The notes beneath the pieces were generated by a model that saw only the letters and a program-made list of their open reading frames with translations, searched no databases and was not told where the DNA came from. Position numbers and translations under genes: made by a program. A stretch of DNA of 64,000 bases from an uncultured virus (IMG/VR IMGVR_UViG_3300033068_001325) (taxonomy: Duplodnaviria; Heunggongvirae; Uroviricota; Caudoviricetes): IMG/VR virus record IMGVR_UViG_3300033068_001325, one strand, 5' to 3'. Numbering within the stretch: position 1 is the first letter of the stretch; each line of letters begins with the position of its first letter. Shown here one piece after another: positions 37,595 through 61,742 of the stretch.

Positions 37595-39853
37595 TCAGCC
37601 GGCGCGGCGAACACGGGCGGCGTTGGGGAAACGCTTGGTGAAATCGTCCCCACCGTCTTCGGAAGCAGCGTCCTGCGCCAGCTGCTGTTGCTTGCGGCCG
37701 GCGCGCGGCACAAGAGCCCACGCGGTCTTCAGGGCAAAGAGATCCTTGATCTTGGCCGCGCTCTTGTTGCCGACCATCTCAAAGGCCTTCTGATAGACGC
37801 CCTCGGCCGAGTCGAACGCCATGCCGATCTCGCCGACCACGCCCTTGACGTCGGCCTGCGCCTCCTGGATCGCCCGCATGGTGGCCATGGTCTCGCGCTT
37901 GACCTTGTCGCCATGCTTGGCGAGCGCAGCATCCATGCCGAGCTCGTCCTTCTTGCCGTCGGGCCCGTCCTCCTGCTCGACGACATCCTTGTCCTTCGCG
38001 CCGCCGGCAGCCGCCAGCCGCGCCTTCATGTCGTCGGTCGGACCATCTTCGGCGCCGGCCTCGCCCATGCCAGGCATGCCGGCAATGACGTCGTCGGGGA
38101 CGCCCTTTTCCTTCAGGTAAGCGGCGATCGCGGCGAGGCCGCCATCCTCGGCGCCCTCCTCGGCATCCGGGTCCATTTTGCCGGCCGCGGGATCCACGCC
38201 GGCCGCGGGATCGACCTCCTCCCCGATCTCGGCGTCCTTCACGGTCTTGTCGCCCTCGATCGAGGCCATCAGCTTCTGGACGCCATCGACCACGCCGGCC
38301 AGGTCGGCGTCCTGCGCGAGCTTGCCCTTGAGCAGAGCACCGATGCCGGCGCCGATGGTCTTGATCGTGGAAGCGTTGAACTTGCCGGCCTTCACCGCAG
38401 TGAACAGCGGCTTGACGTCCGGAAGCGCGGCGTCCTGCGCAAGCTTCAGCGTTGACAGGTGAGCACGGATAGCGCCGTAGGCAACGCCAGCCTTCAGGCT
38501 CACGATCTTCTTCGACATTGTAGTCTCCTCGGTTGGTTGAAGTGCTTCGTCACCCACGACGACGTCTTCGCCGGCGCGGCCTTTCTTCACGAGGGCAACA
38601 TGATTGCCCACCATGTTTCGCATCACTCCGTCGTAGGGTTCCCCCTCGTACACTCCCGGCGTCATGTCAGCGTCGTAGCTGTAGGCACTGGAGAGCTCTT
38701 TCTGATCGCCGCTTTCGACATGATCGATGCCGTCACGAGACCAGATAGCGAGTGAATTGTAGAGATACGGATGCACATACTCGGCATTGGAGCCGGTGGT
38801 GCCGACCGTGATTTCGCCGTCGTGATCGTCGGCTGTGTGCGGACGATGCTGCGACAGCAGCGGCAGATTGTTGAACGTCTTCGCCGCCTTCTTGATTTCG
38901 TCCGGATGGCGCAGCAACCGGTAAATTCGGTTCGGCTCGAGGCCCAGCTCCCGGGCGCGCGGGATCTCTCGTCCGTAGTACGGGTTCACACACGCCTTGG
39001 TGATTGGCGAGCTCTTCACATGCAGCCGGGCGAAGTTGTCCGTTCGCCGCACCGATTCCGAGCTCTTGTCGAAGGCCAGGGTGACCACCAGGCCATGACG
39101 GCCGATGGTGATCCCCTCGGGCGCCCGATCGAAAGCCAGGGCCGGCTCGAGCTCGGCCGCCTGCCGGGCGATCTCTTCCAAGAGGGCTTCGGCGAACTCG
39201 TCGCTGGCGAGGCTCGGCTTCATGGGCGCGTAGGTTATGGGGCTCACCCCCGACCCGCCGCAGCCAGCGCACCCCCGGCCTCCACAAGCCGAATGAACGC
39301 TATCCTGCGCAAGGTCGCCGTCGGCGCACGCCCAATCGAAAAGCTCCCGGCCGGATGGAACCCGATCAAGGGTCTCCTCGACCGCCGGATGGAGCGGTCG
39401 CGGCAGGTCATCGAGATTGGCCCAAGCGTGATCGCTGTGCTCATGGTTGAGCTTCGGGGTGAACTTCTGGACCGGCCGCACGAAGGTATGGAACGCCATG
39501 TTGTTCGGCGTGCGGACCTGGTGCAGCAGCTTCATGGGGCCGCGGCCGTCATAGCCGGCTTCTTCGATGGTCTCCCGGTGCGCGGCCGCGATCGGCGCTT
39601 CGCCAGGTTCACAGCCTCCGCCCGGAAGGGCCCAATGCCCCACGAAATTGTCGACGCCCTCTTGGCCACCGCGCTTCAGCAGCAGAATCGAGCCGTCGCG
39701 CGCGACATGGATGATTCCGGCGGCGTGCCCGCGCACCGGCTCGGCGTCGCCGGCGAGAAACTTCTCCGCAACATCACGCGGGATCCCGAGCGTCGATCGA
39801 CCCTCCTCTGCCGCCCACATGGCGCGGCGCTGCGCCTCACTCTTGATCGGCAT
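37595..39853 (-). CDS. Nudix hydrolase - prohead protease (DUF2213-like) - scaffold fusion
   Basis: Nudix box GGGCEPGEAPIAAAHRETIEEAG; ITKACVNPYYGREIP...KELSSAY...NHVALVKKGRAG; acidic scaffold tail. Confidence 0.88.
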   Translation of the reverse strand: MPIKSEAQRRAMWAAEEGRSTLGIPRDVAEKFLAGDAEPVRGHAAGIIHVARDGSILLLKRGGQEGVDNFVGHWALPGGGCEPGEAPIAAAHRETIEEAGYDGRGPMKLLHQVRTPNNMAFHTFVRPVQKFTPKLNHEHSDHAWANLDDLPRPLHPAVEETLDRVPSGRELFDWACADGDLAQDSVHSACGGRGCAGCGGSGVSPITYAPMKPSLASDEFAEALLEEIARQAAELEPALAFDRAPEGITIGRHGLVVTLAFDKSSESVRRTDNFARLHVKSSPITKACVNPYYGREIPRARELGLEPNRIYRLLRHPDEIKKAAKTFNNLPLLSQHRPHTADDHDGEITVGTTGSNAEYVHPYLYNSLAIWSRDGIDHVESGDQKELSSAYSYDADMTPGVYEGEPYDGVMRNMVGNHVALVKKGRAGEDVVVGDEALQPTEETTMSKKIVSLKAGVAYGAIRAHLSTLKLAQDAALPDVKPLFTAVKAGKFNASTIKTIGAGIGALLKGKLAQDADLAGVVDGVQKLMASIEGDKTVKDAEIGEEVDPAAGVDPAAGKMDPDAEEGAEDGGLAAIAAYLKEKGVPDDVIAGMPGMGEAGAEDGPTDDMKARLAAAGGAKDKDVVEQEDGPDGKKDELGMDAALAKHGDKVKRETMATMRAIQEAQADVKGVVGEIGMAFDSAEGVYQKAFEMVGNKSAAKIKDLFALKTAWALVPRAGRKQQQLAQDAASEDGGDDFTKRFPNAARVRRAG

Positions 39854-40223
39854 CTTCGATACCTCCGAAGGCGCCCGGCGCATACGGCCAGTCGGGCAGC
39901 TCGACAGTCTGTCCATTCAGCTTGTGCGGGTTGTCACCGCAAAACTGAATTTTCCCGTCGGTGATGAAGTAGTGGCAAAGCGTGCGGCGCTGCCCCGCCG
40001 GCAGTGGCTCACCCTCGTCATCGTGAATGGTGAAGTTGAGCACCGACGGCTTGAAGGTCGGCCGATCGAAATCGCCGTTGAAATCCCATTTCGGCGGGCC
40101 GCCTTCGATCACGACGCCGTGCGGCTCTTCACAGCCAGGGCACCAGTGCATCAGCCGCACAGTTTTGCGGCCGTCCTGCAGTGTGCCGACCGCTCTGCGA
40201 AGCTTCTTGCCAACCGCTCCCAT
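39837..40223 (-). CDS. DUF6527-like zinc-binding protein
   Basis: WCPGCEEPH...WDFNGDFDRPTFKPSVL...CHYFITDGKIQFCGD..H. Confidence 0.78.
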   Translation of the reverse strand: MGAVGKKLRRAVGTLQDGRKTVRLMHWCPGCEEPHGVVIEGGPPKWDFNGDFDRPTFKPSVLNFTIHDDEGEPLPAGQRRTLCHYFITDGKIQFCGDNPHKLNGQTVELPDWPYAPGAFGGIEDADQE

Positions 40224-40240
40224 CGCCACCCCCAAAATGC

Positions 40241-40447: not shown

Positions 40448-40900
40448 TTATTCGATTGTCATGTTCTCCGGCTCGAGCTCGAGCTCGTCGACCATGATGA
40501 CAAATTCCTCGGTGCGGCCAAGCTTCTTGCCGATCGCACGCATTGCCGTATTCTTGATGTGCGTCGCGCTCTCGATCGTGCGGCATTTGCGCTGCTGCGC
40601 GATCGTGCGGACGGCATTGTACATCAGCTTGTAGACGCCGCGGCCGCGGTACTCCTCCACGACATACGACAGCTGCAACCACATGCGCCCGATCGGCGCA
40701 TCGTGCGCGAAGGAGATCATGCCGGCGGGCACAAATTCGCGCCCCTGCTCGACCGCGACCAGCACGCATTCCCATGACGCCGAAATTTCGGCGCGCGAGT
40801 CCGCGAAACCCTTGGAGATCAGTTCCGCTTGCGCTCGTACTGCCAGGATCGATGCATCCGGAAATAGCCCGAGTGACCCTACCAAAACCCGAGCTCTCAT
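40448..40900 (-). CDS. GNAT acetyltransferase
   Basis: YVVEEYRGRGVYKLM acetyl-CoA motif A; NTAMR. Confidence 0.85.
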   Translation of the reverse strand: MRARVLVGSLGLFPDASILAVRAQAELISKGFADSRAEISASWECVLVAVEQGREFVPAGMISFAHDAPIGRMWLQLSYVVEEYRGRGVYKLMYNAVRTIAQQRKCRTIESATHIKNTAMRAIGKKLGRTEEFVIMVDELELEPENMTIE

Positions 40901-41367
40901 TCGAGCATCCCCGGGCACGGCAGCGACAAGCGCCGGAGATATTGCTTCTCCGTCTCCCACGGCACCGGCGCCTTCTCGCACTCCTTCAGCAGCTTCCGGT
41001 GACGCCGCTCCTGCGCCGGCGTGTTCTTCGGCAGCTTGTCGGCGCCGATCACGGGAAGGTCGGCCGCCATCTGCTGGCGCGTGAGATCGTTTGGCTCGAA
41101 TTGAGATCTGGTAACGCTCTCAAAAATTTCCTGCACGCGAGCTGGTTGTGTGCCGCCGTAGGCCATTGGATGACAATTGTCGTTGATCCAATCGGGAGAC
41201 GCGATCGTATAGACCTTGGCGTCGCCCTCCATCGTCATGGTCGTTATAGCGGTAAAGTCAGGCCCTGCGCCCAAGTCAACGGCCACTACCGGCGCCGCGC
41301 TTGCAACACCCGCTACGCCGGCAATCGCGCCGGCAGCCGCTGCGAAAAATCCTCGTCTCGAAAGCAT
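40897..41367 (-). CDS. Protein with twin-arginine (Tat) signal
   Basis: MLSRRGFFAAAAGAIAGVAGVASA; GAGG RBS. Confidence 0.65.
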   Translation of the reverse strand: MLSRRGFFAAAAGAIAGVAGVASAAPVVAVDLGAGPDFTAITTMTMEGDAKVYTIASPDWINDNCHPMAYGGTQPARVQEIFESVTRSQFEPNDLTRQQMAADLPVIGADKLPKNTPAQERRHRKLLKECEKAPVPWETEKQYLRRLSLPCPGMLE

Positions 41368-41944: not shown

Positions 41945-42132
41945 TTCATTTCCCTGATAGCTGCAACGATTCGGTCGCTCGTTTCCTCAAAGGAATCGAT
42001 CACAACTTGGCAGGCCCAAAAGAGACACCCAGCAAACCCACCCACCATCAGCGTACCGGGGCTGCCCCAAATAAAATAGGCGCCGATCAGGGAGAAGGAC
42101 AAGGCAACAAACAAACTCATAAATTTCTTCAT
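41941..42132 (-). CDS. Small two-helix membrane protein
   Basis: Two hydrophobic segments; ATGA overlaps. Confidence 0.55.
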   Translation of the reverse strand: MKKFMSLFVALSFSLIGAYFIWGSPGTLMVGGFAGCLFWACQVVIDSFEETSDRIVAAIREMK

Positions 42133-42683
42133 GAAAACCCCGGCACCACCGTTACCGACCGTTTCCTGTGCAACTTGGCGCGAACCTCCGGAGAAGCCAT
42201 CGCGACTTTAGTGGCTGCACTCACAGCCTGTCGACGCTCTTCAGAATGCTTGCGCCCTCGTAGAGTTGCGGAAGTCTTTGCATTGCTTTCGGGACGGCGC
42301 ACCCGCGCCCGACTGGCAGCGGCAATCTTGGCTATGGCCTCCGGTGTATGTCGGCGTCCATCCATGGGATTTAGATCGCCGCCTAGAGCAGTGTTATAAC
42401 CAAATTGCCAGTCGCATGTTTTGAACGCAGCGATGGCGGAAATCTCTAATTCCTTGATGTAATCAGGTCTGCCACGCACTAGAACGCGCAGCGTACCGCC
42501 ATGCTTGCGGATAGCTCGGCAAATACGTCGATCGTATTTGCGTGAAGCCTTTAGATGGTCGCGCCAGCGATCAGCCGGGTTACGATTTGTGATTCCGAAG
42601 TAGCGCTTTCCGTTCGAAAATTCGATGACATAGAGCGCTGTCAGCTGAAGCCTGGAACTACCGTTATGCTCTGACACCGACAA
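42129..42683 (-). CDS. GIY-YIG homing endonuclease with NUMOD3-like repeats (start uncertain)
   Basis: ALYVIEFSNGKRYFGIT...RW.DH...E...GYN; GRRHTPEAIAKI, GRKHSEERR. Confidence 0.85.
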   Translation of the reverse strand: MSVSEHNGSSRLQLTALYVIEFSNGKRYFGITNRNPADRWRDHLKASRKYDRRICRAIRKHGGTLRVLVRGRPDYIKELEISAIAAFKTCDWQFGYNTALGGDLNPMDGRRHTPEAIAKIAAASRARVRRPESNAKTSATLRGRKHSEERRQAVSAATKVAMASPEVRAKLHRKRSVTVVPGFS

Positions 42684-43480
42684 TTGATAAGCTCCCCAGG
42701 ATAGATATAGCGACGTACTTTGGGATCATTATCATACCACCCTTTGGTCGTATCGTACAGCTTCCCATCGTTGGCAAGGTGCGTCGGCCGCGGCTCTTTC
42801 CCGGCTTTCGAATGACGCCACTTCGACTTCGTCAACCCGAGCTCGAGCTTGCGCGCGCGGTCCATCGCGCCAGTGGCCATGTTGTTCTGAGTGCGGGCGA
42901 TCAGCGCTGCGCGCCTTTTCGTCACCCCGTAGTTTTTCTCCAGTGTGCGCGCGAGGCCGCCAAGATCGCGCCCCGCCTGGATCGACCGCATGACGTCGCC
43001 CTGGACGTTCTTCAGGTACTGCTGCGGAATCGATTTGATGAGCTCGACGTTCTGCTGGAGCGTCGCCTTCATGACGTCGCGCATGGCCGGCGTCATCGTG
43101 AATTTCACCGTCCAGTTTGCCTCGCGCAGGATCCGCGCCAACTGCGCGTCATTGCGCTGCGCGACTTCGAACATGAAGTGCTTGGCGATTTTCTTCGCCG
43201 CCTTGTCCCACAGCTTCTGCCACCGGTCGGTGAGCTCTTTGATGGTGCGCGTGAGCTCGTTGGCCGGCAGGACGTCGTCCATGGCGAGCGGCTCGTTGTT
43301 CTTGTACCGCGCCTCGATCCAATAGCTGACCGATCGGTCCATGCGCTCAATCAGTCGATCGAGCTTGGCGCGATAGGCAGCTTCAACACCGGCGCTCGGC
43401 GCATTCGGTTCAAGGTCAATCCATTTGGCGACACGGCGGTTGCCAGTCGTCTCAATCGCTCGGAAGGCGGTTGCTGGCAT
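42641..43480 (-). CDS. Minor head morphogenesis protein (MuF / SPP1 gp7-like)
   Basis: NVELIKSIPQQY...RAALIARTQ...WRHS....PRPTH...PGELINCRC. Confidence 0.9.
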   Translation of the reverse strand: MPATAFRAIETTGNRRVAKWIDLEPNAPSAGVEAAYRAKLDRLIERMDRSVSYWIEARYKNNEPLAMDDVLPANELTRTIKELTDRWQKLWDKAAKKIAKHFMFEVAQRNDAQLARILREANWTVKFTMTPAMRDVMKATLQQNVELIKSIPQQYLKNVQGDVMRSIQAGRDLGGLARTLEKNYGVTKRRAALIARTQNNMATGAMDRARKLELGLTKSKWRHSKAGKEPRPTHLANDGKLYDTTKGWYDNDPKVRRYIYPGELINCRCQSITVVPGFS

Positions 43481-43548
43481 GGGTGAGCCTGTCGATCGAG
43501 GGCGGGCGCCGGCGCGTGCTGCGCGAACCTCGCCCAAGGATCACGCGA

Positions 43549-43821
43549 TCAAGTCGAGGGCTTGCGGTCTCCTCCGCCCTGAAAGCCGCCCCCGGAGTTG
43601 CCGGAGCCCTCCTCCCCGTTTCCCTCCAGGGCCTTCACGTCGTTCTCCATCTCCGTGAAAGCCTTCTCGCGGTCGTCGAGCTCCGCCTCGTTCACGCGGA
43701 AAGCCTCATCGCCCCGGCTTTCCAGCTGGTCGAGCCGTTCCCCGAGCGCGTCGGCGCGATCGTCCCAAGCCTTTCGCACGTTGCGCATGCGCTCGGAAAT
43801 GTCGCGCAGCTTCTTAGACAT
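43549..43821 (-). CDS. Small coiled-coil protein
   Basis: GAGGAGG RBS. Confidence 0.6.
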   Translation of the reverse strand: MSKKLRDISERMRNVRKAWDDRADALGERLDQLESRGDEAFRVNEAELDDREKAFTEMENDVKALEGNGEEGSGNSGGGFQGGGDRKPST

Positions 43822-44098
43822 CGTCCCCTCCTCGAGTCGAGCGATCGAGCGCGACAGATGCAGGTCCAGCAGTTTTGACAGCTGCAGTGTCTGCTCGCCG
43901 TAGAGATCCCGGATCGAAGCCGGCCTTTCGGAGGGCTTCGTGCAATTCTTGTTCGAACCGCACACGGGCGCGCTCCGATGGTGGAATCAACACTCGCTTG
44001 CGTGGGCGCCGGCGCCAATCGACATCAGGCGCCTGCCCTCGAGCAATATGGGCGAGGCTGCAGTGGCGATCGTTGATGCCGCTTCGATACCTACTCAT
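43814..44098 (-). CDS. Hypothetical basic protein
   Basis: Overlaps both neighbours in operon fashion. Confidence 0.4.
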   Translation of the reverse strand: MSRYRSGINDRHCSLAHIARGQAPDVDWRRRPRKRVLIPPSERARVRFEQELHEALRKAGFDPGSLRRADTAAVKTAGPASVALDRSTRGGDDV

Positions 44099-44345
44099 CC
44101 GCCGGCGCGTCCGGCTGGATGTCGTCTGGATCGACTTCGTTGCCGTCGGCGTCGAAGACCTTCGGCTTAAACGCTGGAGCATCCTTGTCGACGACGTTCA
44201 AGCCACCGTCCAATATGCCAATGCCGCTGCTATCGCGGTTTGGGACTATTCCATCCCCGTACTCAGCACCAGCGTCCATCGCGAGAACAGGCATTCCCTG
44301 AATGCCCTCGATCGTGGCTCGCAACCTCCGTGATTTTCTGCTCAC
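44091..44345 (-). CDS. Small protein with LAMD motif (possible processed internal head protein)
   Basis: Basic N-terminus, VLAMDA, acidic C-terminus; abuts the portal stop. Confidence 0.55.
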   Translation of the reverse strand: MSRKSRRLRATIEGIQGMPVLAMDAGAEYGDGIVPNRDSSGIGILDGGLNVVDKDAPAFKPKVFDADGNEVDPDDIQPDAPADE

Positions 44346-47300
44346 TCACAGCTCCCTCAGCGTGATGTGGTTGCCTTCGACCTTCTCCACGTAGAAGCGT
44401 GTGCCGGACTTGAAGAGCACTTCCGCTTCGTTGTGATAGTTCGAAATTTTCTGCACGTCGCGGCCGCTCTTACCATGAACCGTGTACTGATGGCTACCCG
44501 ACCATACGTTCTTGTTTTTGCTGGTGGAAGTGAAGCCGCGCTCCTCGACCACCATGCCCTCCTTGTAGAGAGCGAACTGCTCAGCCGTGAGCGATGCCTT
44601 GCGATAGGTCGTGCCCTGGTATGCCGGCATCTTGTCGAGACCGGCATTGATCGACTTCATGAGCTTGTACTGCGCCACCGTCATTACGCCCTTGCGCAGC
44701 TGGTCGTTGACGCCGCGATAGTGCGAACCGGTATAGGCGATCACGCCCACCGCCTCTTCCGGCGTGAGATAGTTGGTGAGGCCGGCAGTCTGCAGCTTTG
44801 CCTTTGCGTTCTTGATGTAGCTGCCCGAAGCCTTGTGACCACCGAACAGCGCTTCCATCGCCTCATAGTGGTCTTTCATTTCGGGGTTCTTCGCGAACTG
44901 CTCCTCGAGCGCCTTCTTCTCGGCCTCCATCTTCTGCTGCTGCTCCCAGGCAGCCTTCTCCTGCTCCGCTTTCAGCAGCTCTGCCTTTTGCTTTTTCTCG
45001 ACCTTCACAAGCTCCGTCATGTCGACGCCAAGCTGCTTGAAGTCGGCGACCTTCTCGTTGAGTTGGTCGTTCGTTAGGCCTTCTTTGCCTTCCCATTTCT
45101 TGTTGAAGGCATCGAGCAGATCGTTGGCCTGTTTCTTCATGGTTTCCGTTTCCGGCTTATCGCCGGGCACGTACTGCATCTTCAGCGCAACGCCCTTCTT
45201 CGCCTTCTCCTTGTCAGCCGGCGAGGCCTCGGGAGCCTTTGGCTTCGGTTTCTCGAGCGACACGCCCTTTTCAGCCAAAAGCTTTTTCACTTTATCATGC
45301 GCCGAAGCATTGAACTGCTGCGCAAAATCAGGATGGTCCGCGATCAAGCTTTTCAGCTTCTCTGGATTGTCCTTCGCACCAGCGTCAGCAAAGGCACCGA
45401 GCCATTCTGCATAAGTTGATGGCTTCTGACCGGCGGGAGGAGCATTAGGAATTTTCGGTGAGGCAGGCTGCTTCTTGTTGAGCTCCTCCGCCTTCTTCAG
45501 CGTTTCACCAAGCGGCGTGCCCACGATTGCAGATGGGGGCTCGGGGATCGCTCCGGTCTCTGCGGCCTTCTTCGTCACCGCATCCTGCTTGGAAGCCTTC
45601 TTCGCGGCCTGCTCTTTCTTGAAGGCCTCGAGCTCCTCGGCCGTCATCTTGGTGCCGAAATACTTGCCGTCCTTCTTCTCCAGCTTCATGCCGAGAGCGG
45701 CTGCCTGCGCCGGCATCGAGACCGACGGCCAGCCCATTTCGGTCATGAGCTCTTTCGGCGTGGTCCCCTTTTCGAGGAGCCAGCCGATGTGCTCCTTTTT
45801 GGACTTGAAGACCGGCTTGTCGCCTTTATCGGCTTCGGCTTCTTCGCCTTCCTCGCCACCGCCACTCTCCCCTGCGCCCTTTGGCGCGAATTTGCCGTCC
45901 TTCTTGCGAGGGTGCTTGCCCTCGTCGAACGTGGCTTCGTCGAACGCGAACACGTCGGGCGCTACTTCGGTCGGATCGCCATCGAATGACAGGTCTTCGG
46001 TCTCGCCAGGCTCTTCGGCGTTCTCGAGGCGCGCGGTGTAGCCGTTGCCAATGACATCGGTCTCCATATCGGATTCCGAGAGGTTGGCGCCGATCGCGTC
46101 CATGGCCGCGCCCATCATGGCTTCGTCTTCGGCCTGGAGCTGGAAGCGCTTCGCCAGATCCTGCTTGCGAGCAATGAGGATGTCGGCCAGCTCCTTGTCT
46201 CCGCCGACGGCCTGCCGGATCTTGGCGTCCGGGATCGCGGTGACGCGCGCGACGGATTCCTTCAGCTCCTCCGGGCTCATCTTCCCGTACAGCCGCGCGG
46301 CATCGGGCGACATGCTCGGATTGCGCATGCTGTCGATCTCGGAAACCTTGGGCCCGAATGCGCTGCCCTTCGGTCCGCCCTGCGCGCGGTAGCGCAAGCT
46401 GCCCCCGACATCGAGCGTCACCGGCTCGCCGGCGCGGATGCCCTGGTTGTCACCGCCGGTGCCGGCCGCATCCCAATTGGATAGCCACGCATGCACACCG
46501 AAGTCGCGCGCTGCCGCCTTGCGCTCCTCCGCCGTCATGGAGCTGATGCGATTCTTGTCGAGCTGCTCCCATGCCGTCACGACATGGTCGGGGCCGGCCT
46601 CACGATAGTCGAGCGTGTTGACGCCGGCGAGCTGGTACAGGCGGGCCGCCGCTTTCTCGTTCGCGACATGCTCTTTCGTTTTCGGCTTCTTGACGTAGAA
46701 CTTCGCGCCGGCGTCATCGGTATAGACACCACCCTCATTGGTGCCGAGCTTGCCGCCGGTCTTCTTCAACTTCGACACATCCAGCTTCTTCGAAGCTTCG
46801 GTCGTGCTCGAGCTGCCACTTTCGGATGCCGGATTCTTCGATCCACCGCCCGTTGATCCAAATTCTCCGTTCTCGGCGCGCGGATGATCGGCTTCGTTCC
46901 ATTCGTCGCTCGCTCCCTGGTCAAATCCGCCGTCGGCTTCGCCGCCGTCACTGCCTCCGCCTTCGCGCCCCCCGAATGGATCGTCCCCACCCTCGGGGTC
47001 AGGCTCGGGCGCCTCGGGGACGTCGGCCGGGTCGATGTCGTGGTACTCCGAGTCGGCGTCGTTGGCCACCCGCGTGCGCGCTTCGGCGTTGGTGATAATG
47101 CCCTTGTCGATGAGCATTCCGTCGGTCTCCGCTTCGATCTTGCGGATTTCGGCGAGCTCCTTGTCGGTCATCGACCACAGCGGCACGAAGGTAAAGGTGA
47201 TTTCGTCGTCAACCTCACCCCATAGCGACCGCATGATGAAGTGGATCACGGTCTGCAAGTGATCGCGGAAGAACTGCTCCTGGAACGCGGCGATGGTGTC

Positions 47301-48866
47301 ATAGAAAGCGCGGATTTCACCTTCGCTCGATGCGTTGAGGCCGGTCGGCGTGATGCCCAGCAGGATGATCAGCGGAATGCCGCTGACTGCCGACATCTGC
47401 TCTTGCGACTGCGCCTGCAGCTTGTCGAGGCTGCCAAGCGGCGTCGACACGTTGAAAAACTCTTCCGTGTCCTTGTCGAGCACGAATGAGCCGGCATTTG
47501 TGCGCATCGTATTGAATAGCTCGATGCGCTTGATCGCCTCCACCCCGCCGATTTCGAGATCGGCAGCCATGTTGGTGTAGACGCCGCTGACCGAGAACGA
47601 TTCGACCAAATCGCACACCGCTTGCCGCGTGCGCAGCCAGTTGTCGACATACGGCTTGGCCATCTGCGACATGGAAAGGCCGCCGAACGCATAGGCCGGC
47701 TTCAGAATGTCGGGGACTTCACGGCCGACGAAGCGCAGCAGGCGCGAACGGTGCACGGTGATGCCGTTCACATACCAGTGCTCGGGATTGTACCAATCGG
47801 CCTTCAGCGGATTGAGCGAGTTGTAGTTGGCCGGATAGCACCACATCGGCTCAACAGGGCGCACAGCTTTCAGCTTGCGCTTCTTGTTGACCTTCACCTT
47901 GGAAACGGTGCCGCGACCATTGCCGATCGGCGTCTGCAGCTCCTCGCCTTCGACTCCGAGATCGACAAACAGGTGATACCGGCCAAACCAGCCGTCACCC
48001 TCGGCGATGGTGTAGAAGGCGTCCTTCACGCGAAGGCGCCGCATTTCGTCTTCCAGCTCCTTGATGCGCTTGGCCTTGTCGAGCGACCGCTTCCTCTTCA
48101 CGGAATCGCGCACGCGCTGCTTGGTGTCGTCGAGCTCCGCCTCCGCTTCGTCGAGCTCCGCTTCCGCCGGGTCAGCCGGCACACCAGGCGCGCCGCCGCC
48201 ATCATTCACACCAGGCTTCGGCTCTGGACCCGGCGCCTCGTAGTCCTCATCGGGCGAATTGACGGTGTGGAACTGGATCCACTTGCGCGTCATCTCCGTC
48301 GCAATGCGTTCGGAGATCCGCCGATACTCGGCCCGCTGGGTGAGGGCGGCCAGGTACGAATACCCCAGAAAGCCGATTCCCTCGGCGAACGACACGTTGA
48401 GAGCGTCGCCCGCCCATGCCCCGACTTGGCCTATCTGGCCGGCCACCAGGCCATCGGGGCTGTAGTCCTGCCCCAAACCAGCGTCCTGCGCGAGCTTGCG
48501 GGCCGTTACCCCCTTGGGAAGCACCCCCTTTGGCGGTTCCCATGGAGCCAGGTACGAACCGGACGCCAGGGCTGCCTCAGCCAGCGGATTTCGCTTCCGC
48601 CGCATGCCCCGGGCGGCCTCGATCAGCTTTTCCATGTGCTGGCGGCGCTCGGCCGGGGTGGCGACCGCCCCTGCAGGCGGTGCAGGAGCCGCTGGCGTGG
48701 CCGCCGGTGCGGTTTTGGCGACTTCCGGCACCTTGGGCGCTACCGGCGAGCGGGCAGCCCTGTTGGCCTCCCTGCGCGTGCTGGCCCGCCCCGCGCCCAC
48801 GATCGCGCGCGTGAGGCCCGCGGCAATCGCCGCCTGCCGATCGGCCCGGGTGCGCCGCACCGTCAC
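44346..48866 (-). CDS. Portal protein (DUF1073-like) fused to kinase-like and ADP-ribosyltransferase domains
   Basis: Follows TerL; FLGYSYLAAL.QRAEYR, HRSRLL, LLGITPTGLNASSEGE, FTFVPLW; then GTNEGGVY...FYVK...NE...WLSNWD...DN...LDVGG; then YR...GFTSTS...EAEVLF. Confidence 0.9.
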   Translation of the reverse strand: MTVRRTRADRQAAIAAGLTRAIVGAGRASTRREANRAARSPVAPKVPEVAKTAPAATPAAPAPPAGAVATPAERRQHMEKLIEAARGMRRKRNPLAEAALASGSYLAPWEPPKGVLPKGVTARKLAQDAGLGQDYSPDGLVAGQIGQVGAWAGDALNVSFAEGIGFLGYSYLAALTQRAEYRRISERIATEMTRKWIQFHTVNSPDEDYEAPGPEPKPGVNDGGGAPGVPADPAEAELDEAEAELDDTKQRVRDSVKRKRSLDKAKRIKELEDEMRRLRVKDAFYTIAEGDGWFGRYHLFVDLGVEGEELQTPIGNGRGTVSKVKVNKKRKLKAVRPVEPMWCYPANYNSLNPLKADWYNPEHWYVNGITVHRSRLLRFVGREVPDILKPAYAFGGLSMSQMAKPYVDNWLRTRQAVCDLVESFSVSGVYTNMAADLEIGGVEAIKRIELFNTMRTNAGSFVLDKDTEEFFNVSTPLGSLDKLQAQSQEQMSAVSGIPLIILLGITPTGLNASSEGEIRAFYDTIAAFQEQFFRDHLQTVIHFIMRSLWGEVDDEITFTFVPLWSMTDKELAEIRKIEAETDGMLIDKGIITNAEARTRVANDADSEYHDIDPADVPEAPEPDPEGGDDPFGGREGGGSDGGEADGGFDQGASDEWNEADHPRAENGEFGSTGGGSKNPASESGSSSTTEASKKLDVSKLKKTGGKLGTNEGGVYTDDAGAKFYVKKPKTKEHVANEKAAARLYQLAGVNTLDYREAGPDHVVTAWEQLDKNRISSMTAEERKAAARDFGVHAWLSNWDAAGTGGDNQGIRAGEPVTLDVGGSLRYRAQGGPKGSAFGPKVSEIDSMRNPSMSPDAARLYGKMSPEELKESVARVTAIPDAKIRQAVGGDKELADILIARKQDLAKRFQLQAEDEAMMGAAMDAIGANLSESDMETDVIGNGYTARLENAEEPGETEDLSFDGDPTEVAPDVFAFDEATFDEGKHPRKKDGKFAPKGAGESGGGEEGEEAEADKGDKPVFKSKKEHIGWLLEKGTTPKELMTEMGWPSVSMPAQAAALGMKLEKKDGKYFGTKMTAEELEAFKKEQAAKKASKQDAVTKKAAETGAIPEPPSAIVGTPLGETLKKAEELNKKQPASPKIPNAPPAGQKPSTYAEWLGAFADAGAKDNPEKLKSLIADHPDFAQQFNASAHDKVKKLLAEKGVSLEKPKPKAPEASPADKEKAKKGVALKMQYVPGDKPETETMKKQANDLLDAFNKKWEGKEGLTNDQLNEKVADFKQLGVDMTELVKVEKKQKAELLKAEQEKAAWEQQQKMEAEKKALEEQFAKNPEMKDHYEAMEALFGGHKASGSYIKNAKAKLQTAGLTNYLTPEEAVGVIAYTGSHYRGVNDQLRKGVMTVAQYKLMKSINAGLDKMPAYQGTTYRKASLTAEQFALYKEGMVVEERGFTSTSKNKNVWSGSHQYTVHGKSGRDVQKISNYHNEAEVLFKSGTRFYVEKVEGNHITLREL

Positions 48867-50518
48867 CGGCGCCTCTTCATCTGGCGAGCACGGTCAAGCG
48901 TGCTGTCGGCAATCTTCATGGGGCCTCGCTCTGTTCGAGCAAACAACATCATCACGGCGTCGGCCAGGTTCGGCGACTTCGTGCCAGGCGGTTTCTTGTC
49001 TACCAGCATTTTGCCGGTCGGCGACTGTCCATAGCGGGGCTGCGAAAGCTCGCCGACCAGGCGCGTGCAGTACGGCAGCTCGGCCGGAATGCAAATGATC
49101 TCGTCAGGATCGCACGGCTTGTTCTCGCGCACCCAAAGATACGTGGCTCGAAAGCGCCGGCGCAGCGACCACCATCCCTGCGCCTTCATGTTCTTGAAGT
49201 AGTCTTCGTTCTTTCGACCCTTGACGTCTTCGGCTTCGGGCAGCACCACCGCGCCGCTGCCGCGGAAAGCGATCGTTGAAATCTGCCCGATGTGTTCGGC
49301 CTTGCGCGCCTCGTTGAGCACTCGCGCATCGCCGCGCACGCCGGCGCCCAAGCCATCAGCGTCATACTTGAAAGCGTTGAGGCCGTGCTTGTCGCAAAGC
49401 TCAAATACCTTCGTCACGGAATCGAAGATGTCGCCACCTTCACCAGTCCATTCCGCCAACGACGTCAGCACGACGCCGTGCGCGGTGACGAAAGCGTTCT
49501 TGTCCTTCCCCTCGTCGGCGACGTCCATCGCGCCGCGCTTCTCGCCGGTCGGCCGAATAGCGAGCTTCTTGTGAGCGTCGATCGCCGCGCGCACCCACTC
49601 GGCCGGAATGATAACGCCCTCGATCGAGGCCGAATAGTTGATGTCGATTTCCTGCGCGACGACTACGGGGTCGTCGATGTCTTCGACTTGCTTTTCGTAC
49701 CAGGCTTCATCTTTGCGCGGGTCGTCGCGCCAATGCAGCGTGAAGACTTCGATCTTCCCACTATGCCGGCGGTGCGCAAATGAGTTGGCCAAGCCATGCG
49801 GCGTCGAAATGTCGATGCGGCAGTTGGTCGTCTGTGAAAGGGCAAAGTCGACCGCTTTCGGGTTCTGCAAGTACGAGCTCTCGTCAACGAAATAGATCGC
49901 CTTGCGGTCACCGCGTCCGATGTTGTCTCCGGACTGCCCCGTCATTGTAGAGCCATTCGGGAACAGTATGCGCATGTGCGGCGCATACCGGTTCGGATCC
50001 CACGCGCCTTTGAATTCGCGCGGCAGCTCCTGCATGAAGACGCGGGCTTTCCAGAACAGCGACTTCGGGTCACCGATCTTGTCGACGTAGTCCTCCGTCA
50101 CGGAGCCGTAGCCAATGTTCATGCCGGGATAGAACAGGCAGAGCGTGCAGCCCATCGCTACGGCCAGCCAGGAGAGCCCACCATCTCGAGACTTGTCCGC
50201 CAGGCCAGGCCTGCGTTCACGCCATTTGCGGAAGATGAATTGACAGAATTCGACCTGCTTTGGGAACAGGACAAACGGCATCATGGATTCTTCGCCGACG
50301 TCGAGCTTGCGCGGGTCGACGGTGACGCCCCAATCGCCGATGAAATCCCACGGGTTCTCGCGATAGTAGTCGCGCAGCGCTGCGAGATATACCTCGCGCT
50401 CCGCCTCGGGCATGCTGCGGATGGCGCGCAGCCGCTCCGCTCGCTGCCTCCAGATCAGCTCGTAGCCAGGCGCCGGGTTCTTCCAGTCGAACGCCGGCAG
50501 CGCGCCGCTACGCGCCAT
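48863..50518 (-). CDS. terL: Terminase large subunit
   Basis: DKSRDGGLSW Walker A, YFVDES Walker B, ISTPHG, MDVADEG, SPNLADA. Confidence 0.93.
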   Translation of the reverse strand: MARSGALPAFDWKNPAPGYELIWRQRAERLRAIRSMPEAEREVYLAALRDYYRENPWDFIGDWGVTVDPRKLDVGEESMMPFVLFPKQVEFCQFIFRKWRERRPGLADKSRDGGLSWLAVAMGCTLCLFYPGMNIGYGSVTEDYVDKIGDPKSLFWKARVFMQELPREFKGAWDPNRYAPHMRILFPNGSTMTGQSGDNIGRGDRKAIYFVDESSYLQNPKAVDFALSQTTNCRIDISTPHGLANSFAHRRHSGKIEVFTLHWRDDPRKDEAWYEKQVEDIDDPVVVAQEIDINYSASIEGVIIPAEWVRAAIDAHKKLAIRPTGEKRGAMDVADEGKDKNAFVTAHGVVLTSLAEWTGEGGDIFDSVTKVFELCDKHGLNAFKYDADGLGAGVRGDARVLNEARKAEHIGQISTIAFRGSGAVVLPEAEDVKGRKNEDYFKNMKAQGWWSLRRRFRATYLWVRENKPCDPDEIICIPAELPYCTRLVGELSQPRYGQSPTGKMLVDKKPPGTKSPNLADAVMMLFARTERGPMKIADSTLDRARQMKRRR

Positions 50519-54673: not shown

Positions 54674-55954
54674 CTAAGCCGCTTTCTTCTTCGCGCGCTC
54701 GCGCGCAACCTGGTCGAACGATTTGCCGGTGGCCTGCAAGGTCGCCGGCATTTTCGTGAACTTCTGCCATCGACGCACGGCCAGATCGACGAAGACCGGA
54801 TTGAGCTCGAGCGCCAGGCACCGGCGCCCCGTCATCTCGGCCGCAATCATCGTGGTGCCGCTGCCGCAGTAGGGTTCGAAGACGCTATCGCCCGGTGCGC
54901 TGAAGAGCTTCAGGATTCGCTGCATGAGCGCCACGGGCTTCGCCCACGGCACCGGCCGCTCCCAATGCCCCGTCGAAAACAACTTGCTGTACTCGGCCAT
55001 TTCCAGCCCCTTCTGCGGGGCAAGCTTTCCGATTGCGACGATGTAGTCGAGATCCGGAATTAGGTGGTTGTTGTTCGCCGGCAGCGCCGCTTGTCGGTGC
55101 AGCACATACAGATCCCAAGACTCCTTCGTCGAGCGCGCCAGATCAAGATAGTCCGGCAGCAGTTCGCGCGACGTGAAGATGATGTTGGTCTCGCGCAGCT
55201 CGCACAGTTTCGACACTTCGAACTTATCGACGCCGGCGGCAATGATCTTCTTCGCCTGATTGGTCGACGGCTTGCGATAAAGGCCACCGCCGTTGCGGTC
55301 GTGCTCGTACTTGTACGGCGGGTCGGTCGCCATAAGCTTCGGGTCGTCGTCGCCGAGCAGCTTTTCTACCGTCTTCCCGTTCAACGAGTCGCCGCACATC
55401 AGGCGGTGGTCGCCCAGCAGCCAGATGTCGCCGCGCGCGCTCACCACGCGCTCTTCTTCGAGCTCGCCCTCGTCGTCAGGGTTTGCGCCGGCAGCACCGG
55501 GGTTGCCGCCAATAAACGTAGCGAGGCGCACCTTGTCGAAGCCAGTCAGGTTCAACGGATAGTTGACCTTCGCAAGCTCTGTGAGACCGACACGAAGAAG
55601 CTTGTTGTCGAAGCCAGTCATTGCCGGCAGCGCATTGTCACTGATGACGATTGCCCACTTCTCAGCCGCCGTCAGTCCCTTGCGCACGATCGTTGGAATT
55701 TTTGCGCCGATTTTGACGCATACCAAACGACGCCCATGCCCTTTCAGCACAACGTCATTTTCATCAACGAGAGCCGGCTGGTCAAAACCATGGGCCCGGA
55801 TGTTTTCTTCGATGGCGTTGAGCTGTGCCTGTGTGTGGATCTTGGGATTGTTCGGGAAAGGCTTCAGCTCGTTGGGGTCGCGCAGCACGATTTCGGTCGC
55901 GACAAATTTCAACTTTTCGATCGGAATAGCAGCTTGAGCTTTTTTCTTCCTCAT
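54674..55954 (-). CDS. ParB-N fused N6/N4 DNA methyltransferase
   Basis: NNPKIH...GHGR; GDIWLLGDHRLMCGDS; TDPPY; KPVAL; EPYCGSGTT. Confidence 0.9.
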   Translation of the reverse strand: MRKKKAQAAIPIEKLKFVATEIVLRDPNELKPFPNNPKIHTQAQLNAIEENIRAHGFDQPALVDENDVVLKGHGRRLVCVKIGAKIPTIVRKGLTAAEKWAIVISDNALPAMTGFDNKLLRVGLTELAKVNYPLNLTGFDKVRLATFIGGNPGAAGANPDDEGELEEERVVSARGDIWLLGDHRLMCGDSLNGKTVEKLLGDDDPKLMATDPPYKYEHDRNGGGLYRKPSTNQAKKIIAAGVDKFEVSKLCELRETNIIFTSRELLPDYLDLARSTKESWDLYVLHRQAALPANNNHLIPDLDYIVAIGKLAPQKGLEMAEYSKLFSTGHWERPVPWAKPVALMQRILKLFSAPGDSVFEPYCGSGTTMIAAEMTGRRCLALELNPVFVDLAVRRWQKFTKMPATLQATGKSFDQVARERAKKKAA

Positions 55955-59237: not shown

Positions 59238-61742
59238 CTAAAATGGCATCGGGTCTGTCGAGCTCTCGCCCGGTGCAAGAATTGGCTTTGGTGGATCCTT
59301 CTTCTTCGGAACAGGAGGCCATTGCAATCCCTTACCATATACGCGACGGCCGGTCGGCCAAATCCAATGCGTATCAGTGCCGGGCTCTTGCATAATTCCG
59401 ATGACATTGTAGGGCACCAAACTCTCGTGGAATCTGCGCGTGCGCGCCTTCAAGCGACCGCGATATTTAGCCTCGTCTTCACCCTCTTCCTTCGGCTGAC
59501 TGAGCCGATATTGGCGGGCAAGATCGGTCCACTTCACAACCTTCCCAATCGAGTTTGGAATCTGCAGGTGTGCTGGAGGAGGAACGCCGACGGTGTCGAT
59601 CGCCTTCAATAGAGCCTGGAATACACCGACGTCATGTCCCTTCAAGTAGAAGCCTTCAGGACGCGGCCGGCCAGCAGCATGCTCATCGATCACTTCGCCA
59701 GGAACATGCTGCGCTGGCTCGATCGACACCATTGACGTAATGGGGTCGCCATCTTCGTCCGTTCCGATCTCCACCGGCTCGAGAACAAACTCCCATTGCA
59801 CACGGTCATCGCCCTCGCGCTGCTTTTGAATGACGCCACGGCGAACGACTCGACCATTGTCATCACGCTTTTCCGTTTTCGCCTTCGCATCTGTGACAAC
59901 GCGCTCGATCAGAATTGCGGTCTCGATATTATTGAAAAACTGCTCATTGCCACGATGCTTTCCTTCAGCATTGGTATGGCCAATGATAATCAGCGGCGCG
60001 CCCGTCAGGTCACGCAATGTCTGATAGTTTTCGAGAATGCGATTGATGTCTTCCGACTTGATTTCGCTCGAGCCTCGCGACGCTGCATTATGCGTGTCGA
60101 CGACTACGGCTCCTAGCGGGAGCTGGAATCCTTGCGACATCTGCACAATTTCGTCAGCAAGCGCCTTGGCATTGTCTTCGCTGGCGAACAGGTTCGGCGG
60201 CCGCGTGACCCAAGCAAATGAATGCAGGTCCGCAGCTGTCATCCCGTAGTGCTGGAGATAGGCGCGCAGCCGGTTTTCAAAACCTGTGGCGCCTTCATAG
60301 GTGAGATAGACTGATCCGCATGGAATGACCTTCCTGCCGGCAAAAGGCTCACCGCTGTGCATGTGCATCAGCATGTCGAGGCACTCAAATGTTTTGCCTG
60401 ATCGGCTTGGCCCCATCAGCAGCGCGTTGTCGTGCATGGGAAGGATTCCCTTGATGCGCCACGGATAGGCGCGCACTGGAGCGCCAAGATCGAATGAAGT
60501 CTTTGCCCCGAATTTCGATTTATAGGGCTCCGGCTTCCATTCCTTCAGTCCGTCTACAATCTCCAGCAATTGCTCCTTGGTGCCGCCAGCGATATCGCGC
60601 CAGTCCTTGACGTCACCCTTCATCGGACACTGCTGCCACACGTCGCGGAAATTGAGCGACTGCACCAGCTCGACGCCAACCGCCTTCAACATCGGAGCCA
60701 GCTTGGCTACGCGCTCGGCACCTGCGCGATCGTTATCCTGGAGAATGATGACGTTACGAGCACCGCGGAAAAACTCGGCGCAGGCCGGCGTGAAATGCTT
60801 CGCTCCGCCGGAGTTGGTTACGGCCAGCAAGCCCCACTCGGTCAGCACGTCGACCTTCGCTTCACCTTCGGGAATGAAGATCGAGCGTTGATCTTCCTTC
60901 GGCTCCTGCAGCTCGTCGATCACGGCATTGGCATTGTAAAGCCAGTGATCGACGTTGCCGAGCTCGGCAAATGTGCGAACCGTGATGTTATTCCACTTCA
61001 GCCGCTCCTCATTCGCCCGCAGCCATGCAGAGCTCCGCGCCGTCTTGATGAATTCAAACGGTTCGTTGCTGTCTCGGTCCAGCACGTCAAGGCCAAGAAT
61101 CCAGGTGCCGTCGCCGGCCGGGCGGCGCTGCATGAATGTCTTCCAGATTTTGCCTTCCCGCGTGCGCTTCCACTCACCATCAGGCATGCGCTCCTGCATG
61201 CGCACGACCTGGTAGAGCAACTGGTTTTCCGGATCGACATAGTTCCACTCGGCTATGACTTCCCGTTTTCCCTGCGCAGCAGGGCGAGCGGAAGCGCCGG
61301 CATTCTCTGCAGCATCTCCCACACTTCCCGCAGCCCGATCTCCTCGAGCTGCTCGCGCACCTTCTGCTCGGCCTGGAGGGGGTCGAGATTCTCGTCCTGC
61401 ATTGTCATGTCGACCAGACGAAGCCGCAGACTGTCGAGCTCCGTTTTTGTGGCTCCCCTCCATGAGATCGACGCCGGCGAGCTGCGCAAGCTCTTTGACC
61501 GCCGCCGGGAAGTCGAGGCCTTGATAGATTTGCATGTATTCGAAGACGTCGTGCCCTTTGCCATCGCCGTCCTTTCCGAATTCGCACCAGATTTTCTTGC
61601 CGTCGTTGACCGTGAAGGACTCGTTGCCCTTCTGCACCCACTCGCCCGCACCCTTCTTCACCAACTGAATATACGAGCCGATGACGTCGCTCGGCTTCAA
61701 ACGAGTTTTGATTTCTTCGATGTCGCGCGGGTCGAATGACAT
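59238..61742 (-). CDS. Primase-helicase (TOPRIM plus RepA/AAA_25 helicase)
   Basis: IFIPEGEAKVD, ILQDNDRAG, KGDVKDW; GPSRSGKT, VVVDT, IIGHT, KQRE. Confidence 0.9.
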   Translation of the reverse strand: MSFDPRDIEEIKTRLKPSDVIGSYIQLVKKGAGEWVQKGNESFTVNDGKKIWCEFGKDGDGKGHDVFEYMQIYQGLDFPAAVKELAQLAGVDLMEGSHKNGARQSAASSGRHDNAGRESRPPPGRAEGARAARGDRAAGSVGDAAENAGASARPAAQGKREVIAEWNYVDPENQLLYQVVRMQERMPDGEWKRTREGKIWKTFMQRRPAGDGTWILGLDVLDRDSNEPFEFIKTARSSAWLRANEERLKWNNITVRTFAELGNVDHWLYNANAVIDELQEPKEDQRSIFIPEGEAKVDVLTEWGLLAVTNSGGAKHFTPACAEFFRGARNVIILQDNDRAGAERVAKLAPMLKAVGVELVQSLNFRDVWQQCPMKGDVKDWRDIAGGTKEQLLEIVDGLKEWKPEPYKSKFGAKTSFDLGAPVRAYPWRIKGILPMHDNALLMGPSRSGKTFECLDMLMHMHSGEPFAGRKVIPCGSVYLTYEGATGFENRLRAYLQHYGMTAADLHSFAWVTRPPNLFASEDNAKALADEIVQMSQGFQLPLGAVVVDTHNAASRGSSEIKSEDINRILENYQTLRDLTGAPLIIIGHTNAEGKHRGNEQFFNNIETAILIERVVTDAKAKTEKRDDNGRVVRRGVIQKQREGDDRVQWEFVLEPVEIGTDEDGDPITSMVSIEPAQHVPGEVIDEHAAGRPRPEGFYLKGHDVGVFQALLKAIDTVGVPPPAHLQIPNSIGKVVKWTDLARQYRLSQPKEEGEDEAKYRGRLKARTRRFHESLVPYNVIGIMQEPGTDTHWIWPTGRRVYGKGLQWPPVPKKKDPPKPILAPGESSTDPMPF

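Follow-up and report, generated by a model that had tools for sequence, protein, structure and literature searches.

Effector cargo on phage head proteins has so far been predicted from genomes. The T4 protein Alt, a free internal protein, follows a capsid-targeting and protease-processing scheme. It is a head-packaged and injected ADP-ribosyltransferase (ART), as summarised in passages of PMC5512222 and PMC9503650. The polyvalent proteins described in parts of Iyer 2017 (PMC5512222) include PBECR, 2H, and InPase domains fused to portals, for example in BcepF1.124, and passages of Iyer 2022 (PMC9503650) state that ARTs of myoviruses may occur as fusions with head or portal proteins, and report Nudix domains fused to MuF, portal, and capsid-processing peptidase proteins; packaging and injection of such effectors are predicted in passages of both. 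In the MuF-fused ART toxins of Jamet 2017 (PMC5576092) portals are named only as neighbours, and no kinase is named. The locus described here lies in a stretch of 64,000 nucleotides from an uncultured virus (IMG/VR record IMGVR_UViG_3300033068_001325; Caudoviricetes), called the window below. In it a single gene encodes a portal protein of 1506 amino acids (aa) whose C-terminal part carries a kinase-fold domain followed by an ART. We regard the fusion and the identities of its domains as practically certain, and the locus as a clean, conserved example of such cargo.

The gene and its parts were delimited as follows:

44346..48866, minus strand: whole portal-cargo gene, 1506 codons plus stop, an open frame with the same product on two other contigs (L001, L002)
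48429..48866, minus strand: N-terminal Ala/Pro-rich extension, aa 1–146 (from composition and orthologue alignment)
47037..48428, minus strand: portal core (PF06381 / DUF1073), aa 147–610 (from Pfam and PHROG matches)
46803..47036, minus strand: acidic, Gly-rich linker, aa 611–688 (D+E 26%, G 23%)
46860..46904, minus strand: first junction motif, aa 655–669 (EWNEADHPRAENGEF), with E658, H661, P662, R663, G667, and F669 invariant in 13 orthologues
46122..46802, minus strand: protein-kinase-like domain of HipA/CtkA/PI4KII type, aa 689–915 (from a family alignment, an AlphaFold2 model, and fold searches)
45888..45932, minus strand: second junction motif, aa 979–993 (TFDEGKHPRKKDGKF) (from sequence pattern and orthologue alignment)
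45642..45809, minus strand: small winged-helix-like domain, aa 1020–1075 (from the AlphaFold2 model and alignment), deleted in-frame in one contig of run X3
44826..45641, minus strand: Lys/Ala/Pro-rich and helical linker region, aa 1076–1347 (disordered at 1105–1138, long helix at 1266–1326)
44349..44825, minus strand: R-S-ExE ADP-ribosyltransferase domain, aa 1348–1506 (from Pfam, a PDB sequence match, the AlphaFold2 model, and a fold search)

The portal core was recognized by PF06381 (Phage_portal_3 / DUF1073) at aa 170–582 (E 2e-73, 247.6 bits against a cut-off of 33.8, profile positions 2–355 of 357) and by the PHROG portal family phrog_146 at aa 147–710 (E 4e-102); PHROGs that matched the tail of the protein are families labelled virion structural or head proteins. 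Gene order confirmed the portal-family setting, in that the gene adjoins an upstream terL-like gene by a GTGA overlap and is followed by MuF, DUF2213, and capsid genes. A preliminary description made from the sequence alone had placed the end of the portal core near aa 610 with an acidic linker behind it, and both the family matches and the composition of the segments agreed with this. The N-terminal extension is coding, because R20 and G24 are invariant in the 13 orthologues (45–74% identity), all of which keep the domain order.

The domain at aa 1348–1506 was assigned, from sequence and modelled fold together, as an arginine-type R-S-ExE ART, for which NAD+ transfer activity is predicted. 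PF03496 matched the full-length protein at aa 1360–1497 (E 1.8e-10, 40.9 bits against a cut-off of 23.4); when the segment was searched alone, PF03496 gave E 2e-12 (47.3 bits against 23.4) and PF01129 gave E 5e-7 (29.7 bits against 22.3). The closest solved ART by sequence was the chain of PDB entries 6DRH/6DRE (E 4e-18), and in the alignment to 6drh_B the segments TYRK, GFTSTS, and NEAEV of the portal protein stood against TYRG, GFMSTS, and NEAEV. The catalytic residues R1422, S1447, T1448, E1480, and E1482 are invariant in the 13 orthologues. A fold search with the model again returned 6drh_B (E 4e-13, TMt 0.83, root-mean-square deviation (rmsd) 2.5 Å, 32% identity) and gave 110 matches at E≤1e-3, with ARTs in every row listed; XopAI, ExoS/T, HopU1, Vis, C3, and VIP2-type enzymes came next. 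The terminal R-S-E triad of the preliminary description was thereby upheld by family matches, alignment, fold, and residue conservation alike. Entry 6DRH is the Tre1–Tri1 pair, in which Tre1 has an R-S-ExE site and ADP-ribosylates Arg174 of FtsZ, according to passages of PMC11606950. Tre1, an effector of the Serratia proteamaculans type VI secretion system (T6SS), was thus the best match by sequence and by fold and has the same R / S-T-S / E-x-E site; however, it is delivered by a PAAR/T6SS spike and neutralised by the immunity hydrolase Tri1, whereas the ART in the window is carried by a phage portal.

The domain at aa 689–915 was confidently modelled as a HipA/CtkA/PI4K-type kinase fold that looks catalytically intact. 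Its AlphaFold2 model, built from a 23-member alignment, had a predicted local distance difference test score (pLDDT) of 93.8 and a predicted TM-score (pTM) of 0.90 and showed the two lobes typical of the HipA/CtkA/PI4KII branch. Foldseek against the PDB gave 125 matches at E≤1e-3, with CtkA of Helicobacter at the top, followed by PI4KIIIbeta, LepB, TTK, and aminoglycoside/macrolide phosphotransferases. VIA-align, which searched 48,161 chains independently of Foldseek, ranked CtkA first as well (Z 13.9, rmsd 3.4 Å, 195 residues aligned), then CotH (12.2), PI4KIIalpha (11.7), HipA (10.8), and MavQ (10.6), with Rio, Fam20, and actin-fragmin kinase farther down; kinase-fold enzymes occupied 50 of the 50 rows listed, and 33 chains had Z≥8. 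The kinase-type motifs are a Gly loop (GGKLGTNEGG), K726, E737, H792, N797, D799, D806-N807, and D819-x-G821-G822. In the 13 orthologues the glycines of the loop and the other residues named are invariant, and the alignment of 23 family members shows them invariant or almost so. On the model they fall in the canonical order: the Gly loop lies between strands 1 and 2, K726 ends strand 3, E737 is in the next helix, D799...N807 precede the strand at 120–123, and D819 follows the strand at 126–129 (model numbering). These results bore out the atypical-kinase layout proposed earlier for the middle of the protein, and the modelling by segment with AlphaFold and Foldseek that had been suggested as its check returned the expected fold for both the kinase and the ART segment.

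The loop W-L-S-N-W-D799...D-N807 parallels W303-L304...D309...N314 of HipA, as read from the product of E. coli K-12 hipA, in which D309 is presumably the catalytic residue. The domain shares with the HipA, CtkA, and PI4KII kinases both the fold (Z 10.8, 13.9, and 11.7) and the W-L-x-N-x-D...D-N loop pattern of HipA; it differs from them in having no significant sequence match, in its compact length of 227 aa, and in a YRAQGxPKGxxF segment of its own, which is invariant after the DxGG motif. The spacing of eight residues between D799 and N807 is a further trait specific to the domain. Among the relatives seen, only the diverged five-copy protein P0125 matched Pfam HipA_C, HipA_2, and APH, over its N-lobe. 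Neighbours in the ESM Atlas were unnamed clusters, the nearest named ones having HipA_2 (46% of members) or PI3_PI4_kinase (16%).

Between the two enzymes, the AlphaFold2 model of aa 1001–1506 (pLDDT 81) showed a confident helix-helix-helix-hairpin unit at aa 1020–1075, with largely invariant residues, then disorder at aa 1105–1138 and helical segments up to aa 1340 that lead into the ART. By segment composition there is a Lys-rich stretch after aa 1000. The earlier designation of this part as a Lys/Ala/Pro-rich region was thus accurate for its low-complexity portion and overlooked a folded winged-helix-like unit and several helices. One contig of run X3 has an in-frame 228-nucleotide deletion (45662-45889, minus strand) that leaves the ART in frame; aa 993–1069 are gone, and what it takes out is exactly the Gly/Glu linker and the winged-helix-like unit.

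We also asked how well the reading frame itself is supported. That the long open reading frame (ORF) is an artefact, either of mis-assembly or of a missed stop or frameshift that fuses a portal gene to an effector gene, is effectively excluded. Two further IMG/VR contigs (L001, L002) encode a product identical over all 1506 aa, and on a third (L003) the orthologue is 66% identical and again a single ORF, of 1615 codons. Contigs of sequencing runs X1–X3, all from one study, span the gene with no indels save the one X3 deletion variant, and a contig of X2 bridges 45526-48866 without a gap, although the best-matching runs may be the window's own sample and are thus not independent support. A relative with 95–99% identity is present in run X5, an estuary metagenome of a second study; 25 of its 34 classified substitutions (of 43) are at third codon positions, and the 34 give 10 amino-acid changes. 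The GC content at third codon positions (GC3) is 0.79 across the entire 1506-codon ORF, and portal and kinase domains are both present in 66 of 120 long relatives scanned (of 153). No stop or frameshift that splits the ORF, the outcome named earlier as fatal to a single gene, appeared in the X1–X3 contigs, and the gene stands as one frame of 1506 codons.

Nothing was found in support of the artefact, although a run of six G residues is present in the Gly-rich linker at aa 632 (window 46969-46974), where a −1 slip would stop at about aa 639. This run is missing from L003, the sole orthologous DNA compared (two DNA sequences in all). Programmed frameshifting at the portal/cargo junction was considered and rejected; aa 590–700 contain no X XXY YYZ heptamer, and the rest of the gene has five, each with GGG as its YYY triplet.

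The linkers on either side of the kinase-fold domain share one short motif (EWNEADHPRAENGEF and TFDEGKHPRKKDGKF), with the consensus [WF]-x-E-x-x-H-P-R-x-x-x-G-[KQ]-F followed by a Gly/Ser run. The pattern HP[RK]xxxGx[FWY] occurred 250 times in 169 of 256 fetched proteins and 0 times in shuffled copies of them. It was found no more than 120 aa upstream of the kinase domain in 91 of 222 cases; phage Orisa03 and portals whose cargo is different (L016, L026) have it too. The position of the motif suggests a processing or docking signal, and it could help to reveal the way in which capsid cargo is processed. As a universal mark of cargo it was rejected, the window containing just two occurrences, both in the portal-cargo gene. 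We found no description of the motif in the literature, the main texts of Iyer 2017 (PMC5512222) and Jamet 2017 (PMC5576092) included.

The relatives of the protein were collected in two ways. A word-seeded search of proteins of 828–2636 residues gave 153 long relatives, of which 120 were domain-scanned, and an exhaustive HMMER search of 1.84 billion cluster representatives (50% identity) gave 3988 proteins with the kinase-fold domain at E≤1e-3 (2582 at E≤1e-10, 577 at E≤1e-30), of which the best 150 were classified. Because both sets were picked by likeness to the 1506-aa protein, the proportions below are not population frequencies, and many of the kinase-domain representatives are metagenomic fragments.

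Long relatives (120 of 153), portal + kinase + ART: 58
Long relatives (120 of 153), portal + ART: 28
Long relatives (120 of 153), portal + kinase: 8
Long relatives (120 of 153), portal with neither: 25
Long relatives (120 of 153), no portal match: 1
Kinase-domain representatives (best 150 of 3988), portal + kinase + ART: 41
Kinase-domain representatives (best 150 of 3988), kinase + ART, no portal: 40
Kinase-domain representatives (best 150 of 3988), portal + kinase: 10
Kinase-domain representatives (best 150 of 3988), kinase alone: 59

When the two sets were pooled, the kinase was behind the portal in 102 of 102 proteins and the ART behind the kinase in 124 of 126, and the ART lay within 40 residues of the C-terminus in 149 of 154. 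Precomputed Pfam matches for the 120 scanned long relatives revealed other portal cargo as well: Nudix (20), eukaryote-type topoisomerase I (7), Zeta toxin (3), PF18763 (3), PF23474 (2), and Hint (1). The survey of DUF1073 portals for variable C-terminal cargo that had been proposed at the outset thus showed that the cargo does vary. Members of the kinase-fold family range from 225 to 7004 residues, and some have two to five copies of the domain. The giants P0125 (3416 aa), P0219 (7004 aa), P0155, and P0165 have such multiple copies with ARTs adjacent in either order, P0155 reading kinase-ART...ART-kinase and P0165 reading ART-kinase...kinase-ART. A Pfam scan of 33 non-portal kinase carriers found Nudix in 18 and the order Nudix-kinase-DUF2213 in 5; in these five, by their domain matches, the kinase domain rides on another head protein. 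Cargo therefore looks, from such architectures, to move between the C-terminus of portals and the N-terminus of the DUF2213 head protein, a behaviour that is apparently undescribed.

Species-representative genomes contained 24 portal-core relatives, in prophages of Alpha- and Betaproteobacteria (Rhizobiales, Bosea, Methylobacterium, sphingomonads, Paraburkholderia, and others) and in a few metagenome-assembled genomes of other phyla. None of these 24 had a kinase or an ART, and in only 3 did the protein extend more than 100 residues past the core. A Xanthobacter agilis prophage portal (PF06381; L016, 953-4720, plus strand) has a 752-aa C-terminal extension with two HPR motifs and a sub-threshold phosphoribosyltransferase match, which may represent other cargo.

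Among cultured phages, 655 records matched the 1506-aa protein, none covering more than 38% of it, and the kinase domain was present in just 20 of 50,697 records, annotated "hypothetical protein" or "ADP-ribosyltransferase". Yersinia phage fHe-Yen8-01 gp129 (2146 aa) has the kinase domain at 1578–1789 and a C-terminal ART, and its record carries the note "phage particle associated protein"; ORF50 of Morganella phage Mecenats66 has a kinase and then an ART, with a Nudix gene two genes downstream. BFVD added Gordonia phages GodonK and Sixama, an "HK97 portal" of an uncultured phage, and a Mycobacterium phage ART protein. Gene 00004 of Pseudomonas phage Orisa03 (L033, 2270-4381, plus strand) encodes a 703-aa "hypothetical protein" with PF06381 at 100–453 and PF03496 at 545–681 (E 5e-19), laid out as portal, acidic linker, HPR motif, and ART; the tblastn rows of Orisa01, Orisa02, and Orimi01 were identical. 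Compared with the gene in the window, the Orisa03 portal-ART fusion is without the kinase domain, and gp129 of fHe-Yen8-01 is a kinase-ART protein that is not portal-fused. Such simpler forms in cultured phages make questions about the cargo testable.

Set against the described systems, the locus resembles the polyvalent proteins of Iyer in having at least two effector domains in one polypeptide within portal-terminase head genes, and resembles T4 Alt and the MuF-fused ART toxins (Jamet 2017, PMC5576092) in having a head-associated R-S-E ART presumed to enter with the DNA. In MuF toxins, however, MuF is the carrier, whereas here the portal is the carrier and MuF is a plain protein of 298 aa, just as the preliminary description had it. 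The kinase of Iyer 2017 also differs; according to passages of that paper (PMC5512222) it has lost the C-terminal subdomain and occurs mainly in phages of Verrucomicrobia-Chlamydia and Bacteroidetes, whereas the domain in the window matches no Pfam model. The novelty that the preliminary description implied for portal-borne cargo was overstated, since passages of Iyer 2017/2022 already describe effector, ART, and Nudix fusions to portals. A kinase-then-ART module was not found in the text passages of those two papers, whose figures and supplements, outside this comparison, may show similar architectures. In the literature we found no mention of the kinase-fold family, of its pairing with ARTs, or of an experimental test of a portal-tethered payload, and nothing on the function of DUF2213. 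What looks undescribed, apart from the junction motif and the movement of cargo between head proteins, is a kinase-fold family, usually followed by an ART and often joined by Nudix, that has no Pfam or NCBIfam model. The locus exposes this family as a very large one that travels with ARTs and Nudix enzymes.

We consider it probable that the protein is a portal that has acquired, at its capsid-facing C-terminus, a polyvalent effector to be delivered into the host, the domains of which are joined by flexible linkers. The C-terminus of a portal points into the capsid. In E217-type portals the C-terminal helical barrel projects into the head and contacts DNA, and residues 529–765 are unresolved, according to passages of PMC10329688. 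Because of this topology it is very likely that the cargo is located inside the capsid, and to that extent the earlier proposal that the portal loads kinase and ART into the head is sound. Each portal subunit entering the prohead would carry one cargo copy inside, up to 12 per virion. The cargo would then be cut free, probably in the linkers bearing the [WF]xExxHPRxxxG[KQ]F motif, and would exit through the portal and tail along with the DNA; the ART would ADP-ribosylate a host protein on its arginines, and phosphate transfer by the kinase-fold domain to a protein or metabolite of the host would take place right at the onset of infection. The cargo mass estimated in this way (12 × ~97 kDa = ~1.2 MDa) is small beside a genome of about 76 kb. 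Location, release, and activity deserve separate grades: release and injection of the cargo are favoured by a small margin over their absence, and the kinase-fold domain is likely to be enzymatically active as a kinase. If it is an injected kinase, enzymes of its kind would form a new class that serves host takeover or anti-defence in the immediate-early phase.

Several observations weigh against delivery of an active kinase and ART. The portal remains in the capsid, so injection requires cleavage, and that the HPR motif is the cleavage site is a guess. Of 153 extended portals, only 80 have the motif in the 150 aa that follow the core (median distance 65), and it is absent from the Nudix-DUF2213 protein encoded downstream in the window. 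Twelve tails of 97 kDa round the portal channel might hinder packaging, and no conserved device, such as a frameshift, for making an extra short portal was found in the two DNA sequences compared. The particle note of fHe-Yen8-01 gp129, a homologue and the one indirect pointer to a location in the virion, is a record annotation that cites no reference, and our search found no paper about the phage. As to the kinase, aa 689–915 gave 0 Pfam families at E≤10 (HipA_C, HipA_2, PI3_PI4_kinase, APH, and the polyvalent-protein kinase included) and 0 NCBIfam matches at E≤0.1. Its best PDB sequence match was the N-terminal part of Legionella LepB (E 0.35, over the Gly loop and the YVKKP strand), and hhalign to E. 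coli HipA was not significant (E 0.12). A profile search with one family alignment (A1) for solved kinases returned ARTs only, because some alignment rows include an ART, and a sequence-profile link to solved kinases was dropped. Kinship to kinases is visible by fold only, and the residue equivalences therefore rest on motif order and not on residue-level superposition. Other chemistries also occur on kinase folds, and pseudokinases exist.

Two alternatives accept the domains and assign them other roles. The cargo might never be released, acting while tethered at the procapsid or packaging vertex of the producing cell, for example by modifying host sensors of the portal and terminase or phage proteins, or serving as a structural or DNA-organising plug of the capsid. 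Passages of Iyer 2022 (PMC9503650) suggest that head-gene-linked ARTs may counter immunity that targets portal or terminase, the winged-helix-like unit and the Lys-rich helices could touch DNA, and the C-terminal barrel of the E217 portal contacts DNA (PMC10329688, in the passages cited above). We nevertheless think a tethered role unlikely. The cargo modules turn up repeatedly, carried by portals, by the DUF2213 head protein, or by free virion-linked proteins; the kinase-ART module is found portal-free in large proteins linked to virion genes, and the kinase also N-terminal to DUF2213, so that a transferable payload fits better than a portal-specific structural role. Moreover, both enzymes are complete with invariant catalytic residues, and the winged-helix unit is dispensable in the natural in-frame deletion variant.

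The other alternative keeps delivery aside and concerns the kinase-fold domain, which may not be a host-protein kinase at all: it could regulate the ART, gate it until delivery as a pseudo-enzyme, or act with Nudix on NAD+/ADP-ribose molecules or on the ADP-ribosyl mark. This is doubtful, although a real possibility. The kinase and ART are adjacent in both orders in the giants P0155 and P0165, an ART is also present on 81 of the best 150 kinase-domain representatives, Nudix occurs in 18 of 33 non-portal carriers, in 20 of 120 portal fusions (of 153), and near ORF50 of Mecenats66, and the nearest folds include the small-molecule and lipid kinases PI4KII, MavQ, and APH. However, the kinase is without an ART in 59 of 150 representatives (some of them fragments), the ART is without the kinase in 28 of 120 portal fusions, and Orisa03 has portal and ART alone; from these separate occurrences neither domain needs the other. 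The full K/E/D/N/D set speaks against a pseudokinase, and the top structural match, CtkA, is a protein Ser/Thr kinase. A broader scheme, which we hold to be quite improbable, would combine these elements. In it the kinase-fold domain and ART would form one two-enzyme weapon, the kinase gating the ART or modifying the ADP-ribosyl mark or an immune signal derived from NAD+/ADP-ribose, with Nudix as a third partner; the HPR motif would serve a general system for loading cargo into capsids as its processing or docking signal, and payloads would hop among portal, DUF2213, and free virion proteins.

The gene belongs to the head module of a contractile-tailed phage of roughly 70–76 kb. Its neighbours in that module are the following:

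48863..50518, minus strand: upstream gene of 551 codons, probable large terminase (weak match to phrog_5989, E 1.2e-7)
43814..44182, minus strand: small conserved ORF directly downstream, 122 aa, no family
42641..43537, minus strand: plain MuF-like head protein, 298 aa (PF04233, by Pfam)
42129..42683, minus strand: GIY-YIG-type homing endonuclease ORF (phrog_314, E 8e-20), overlapping the MuF end and with no counterpart in the syntenic L003 locus
40448..40981 and 39837..40235, minus strand: GNAT acetyltransferase and DUF6527 protein, conserved in the head module, that of L003 included
37595..39916, minus strand: Nudix domain (aa 64–182) fused N-terminally to DUF2213 / PHROG "head maturation protease" (aa 279–771), 773 aa, a second cargo carrier

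The 1506-aa gene starts with GTG, which shares the sequence GTGA with the stop codon of the gene before it, and the two genes are translationally coupled. The preliminary description had called ours the gene after terL; the adjacency holds, and the terL identity is weak, the phrog_5989 match being accompanied by 0 matches to Pfam and NCBIfam. Pfam detected no MuF match within the 1506-aa protein, which is thus distinct from the MuF-fused toxins, and MuF is a separate gene. An immunity gene was sought among the small ORFs at 43814-44182 and 43549-43965, which have no Pfam or PHROG family, and that candidate was set aside; a scan of head-module and other window proteins turned up no ARH or macro-type gene.

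In L003 the orthologue of the DUF2213 protein aligns with aa 260–771 only, and the Nudix part is therefore a variable N-terminal addition. The GNAT acetyltransferase and the DUF6527 protein are possible further packaged effectors. Farther downstream on the same strand are capsid-type, sheath, tape-measure, and baseplate genes, some of which match E217-type Pfam families. Neither Pfam nor PHROG has a family for an ORF of 1102 aa (24347..27655, minus strand) that lies upstream of the genes for neck terminator and sheath. The replication module, also on the minus strand (54674..55954, 61748..62341, and 59238..61742), encodes N6_N4_Mtase and MT-A70 methyltransferases and a primase-helicase with a CHC2 zinc finger and an AAA_25 domain.

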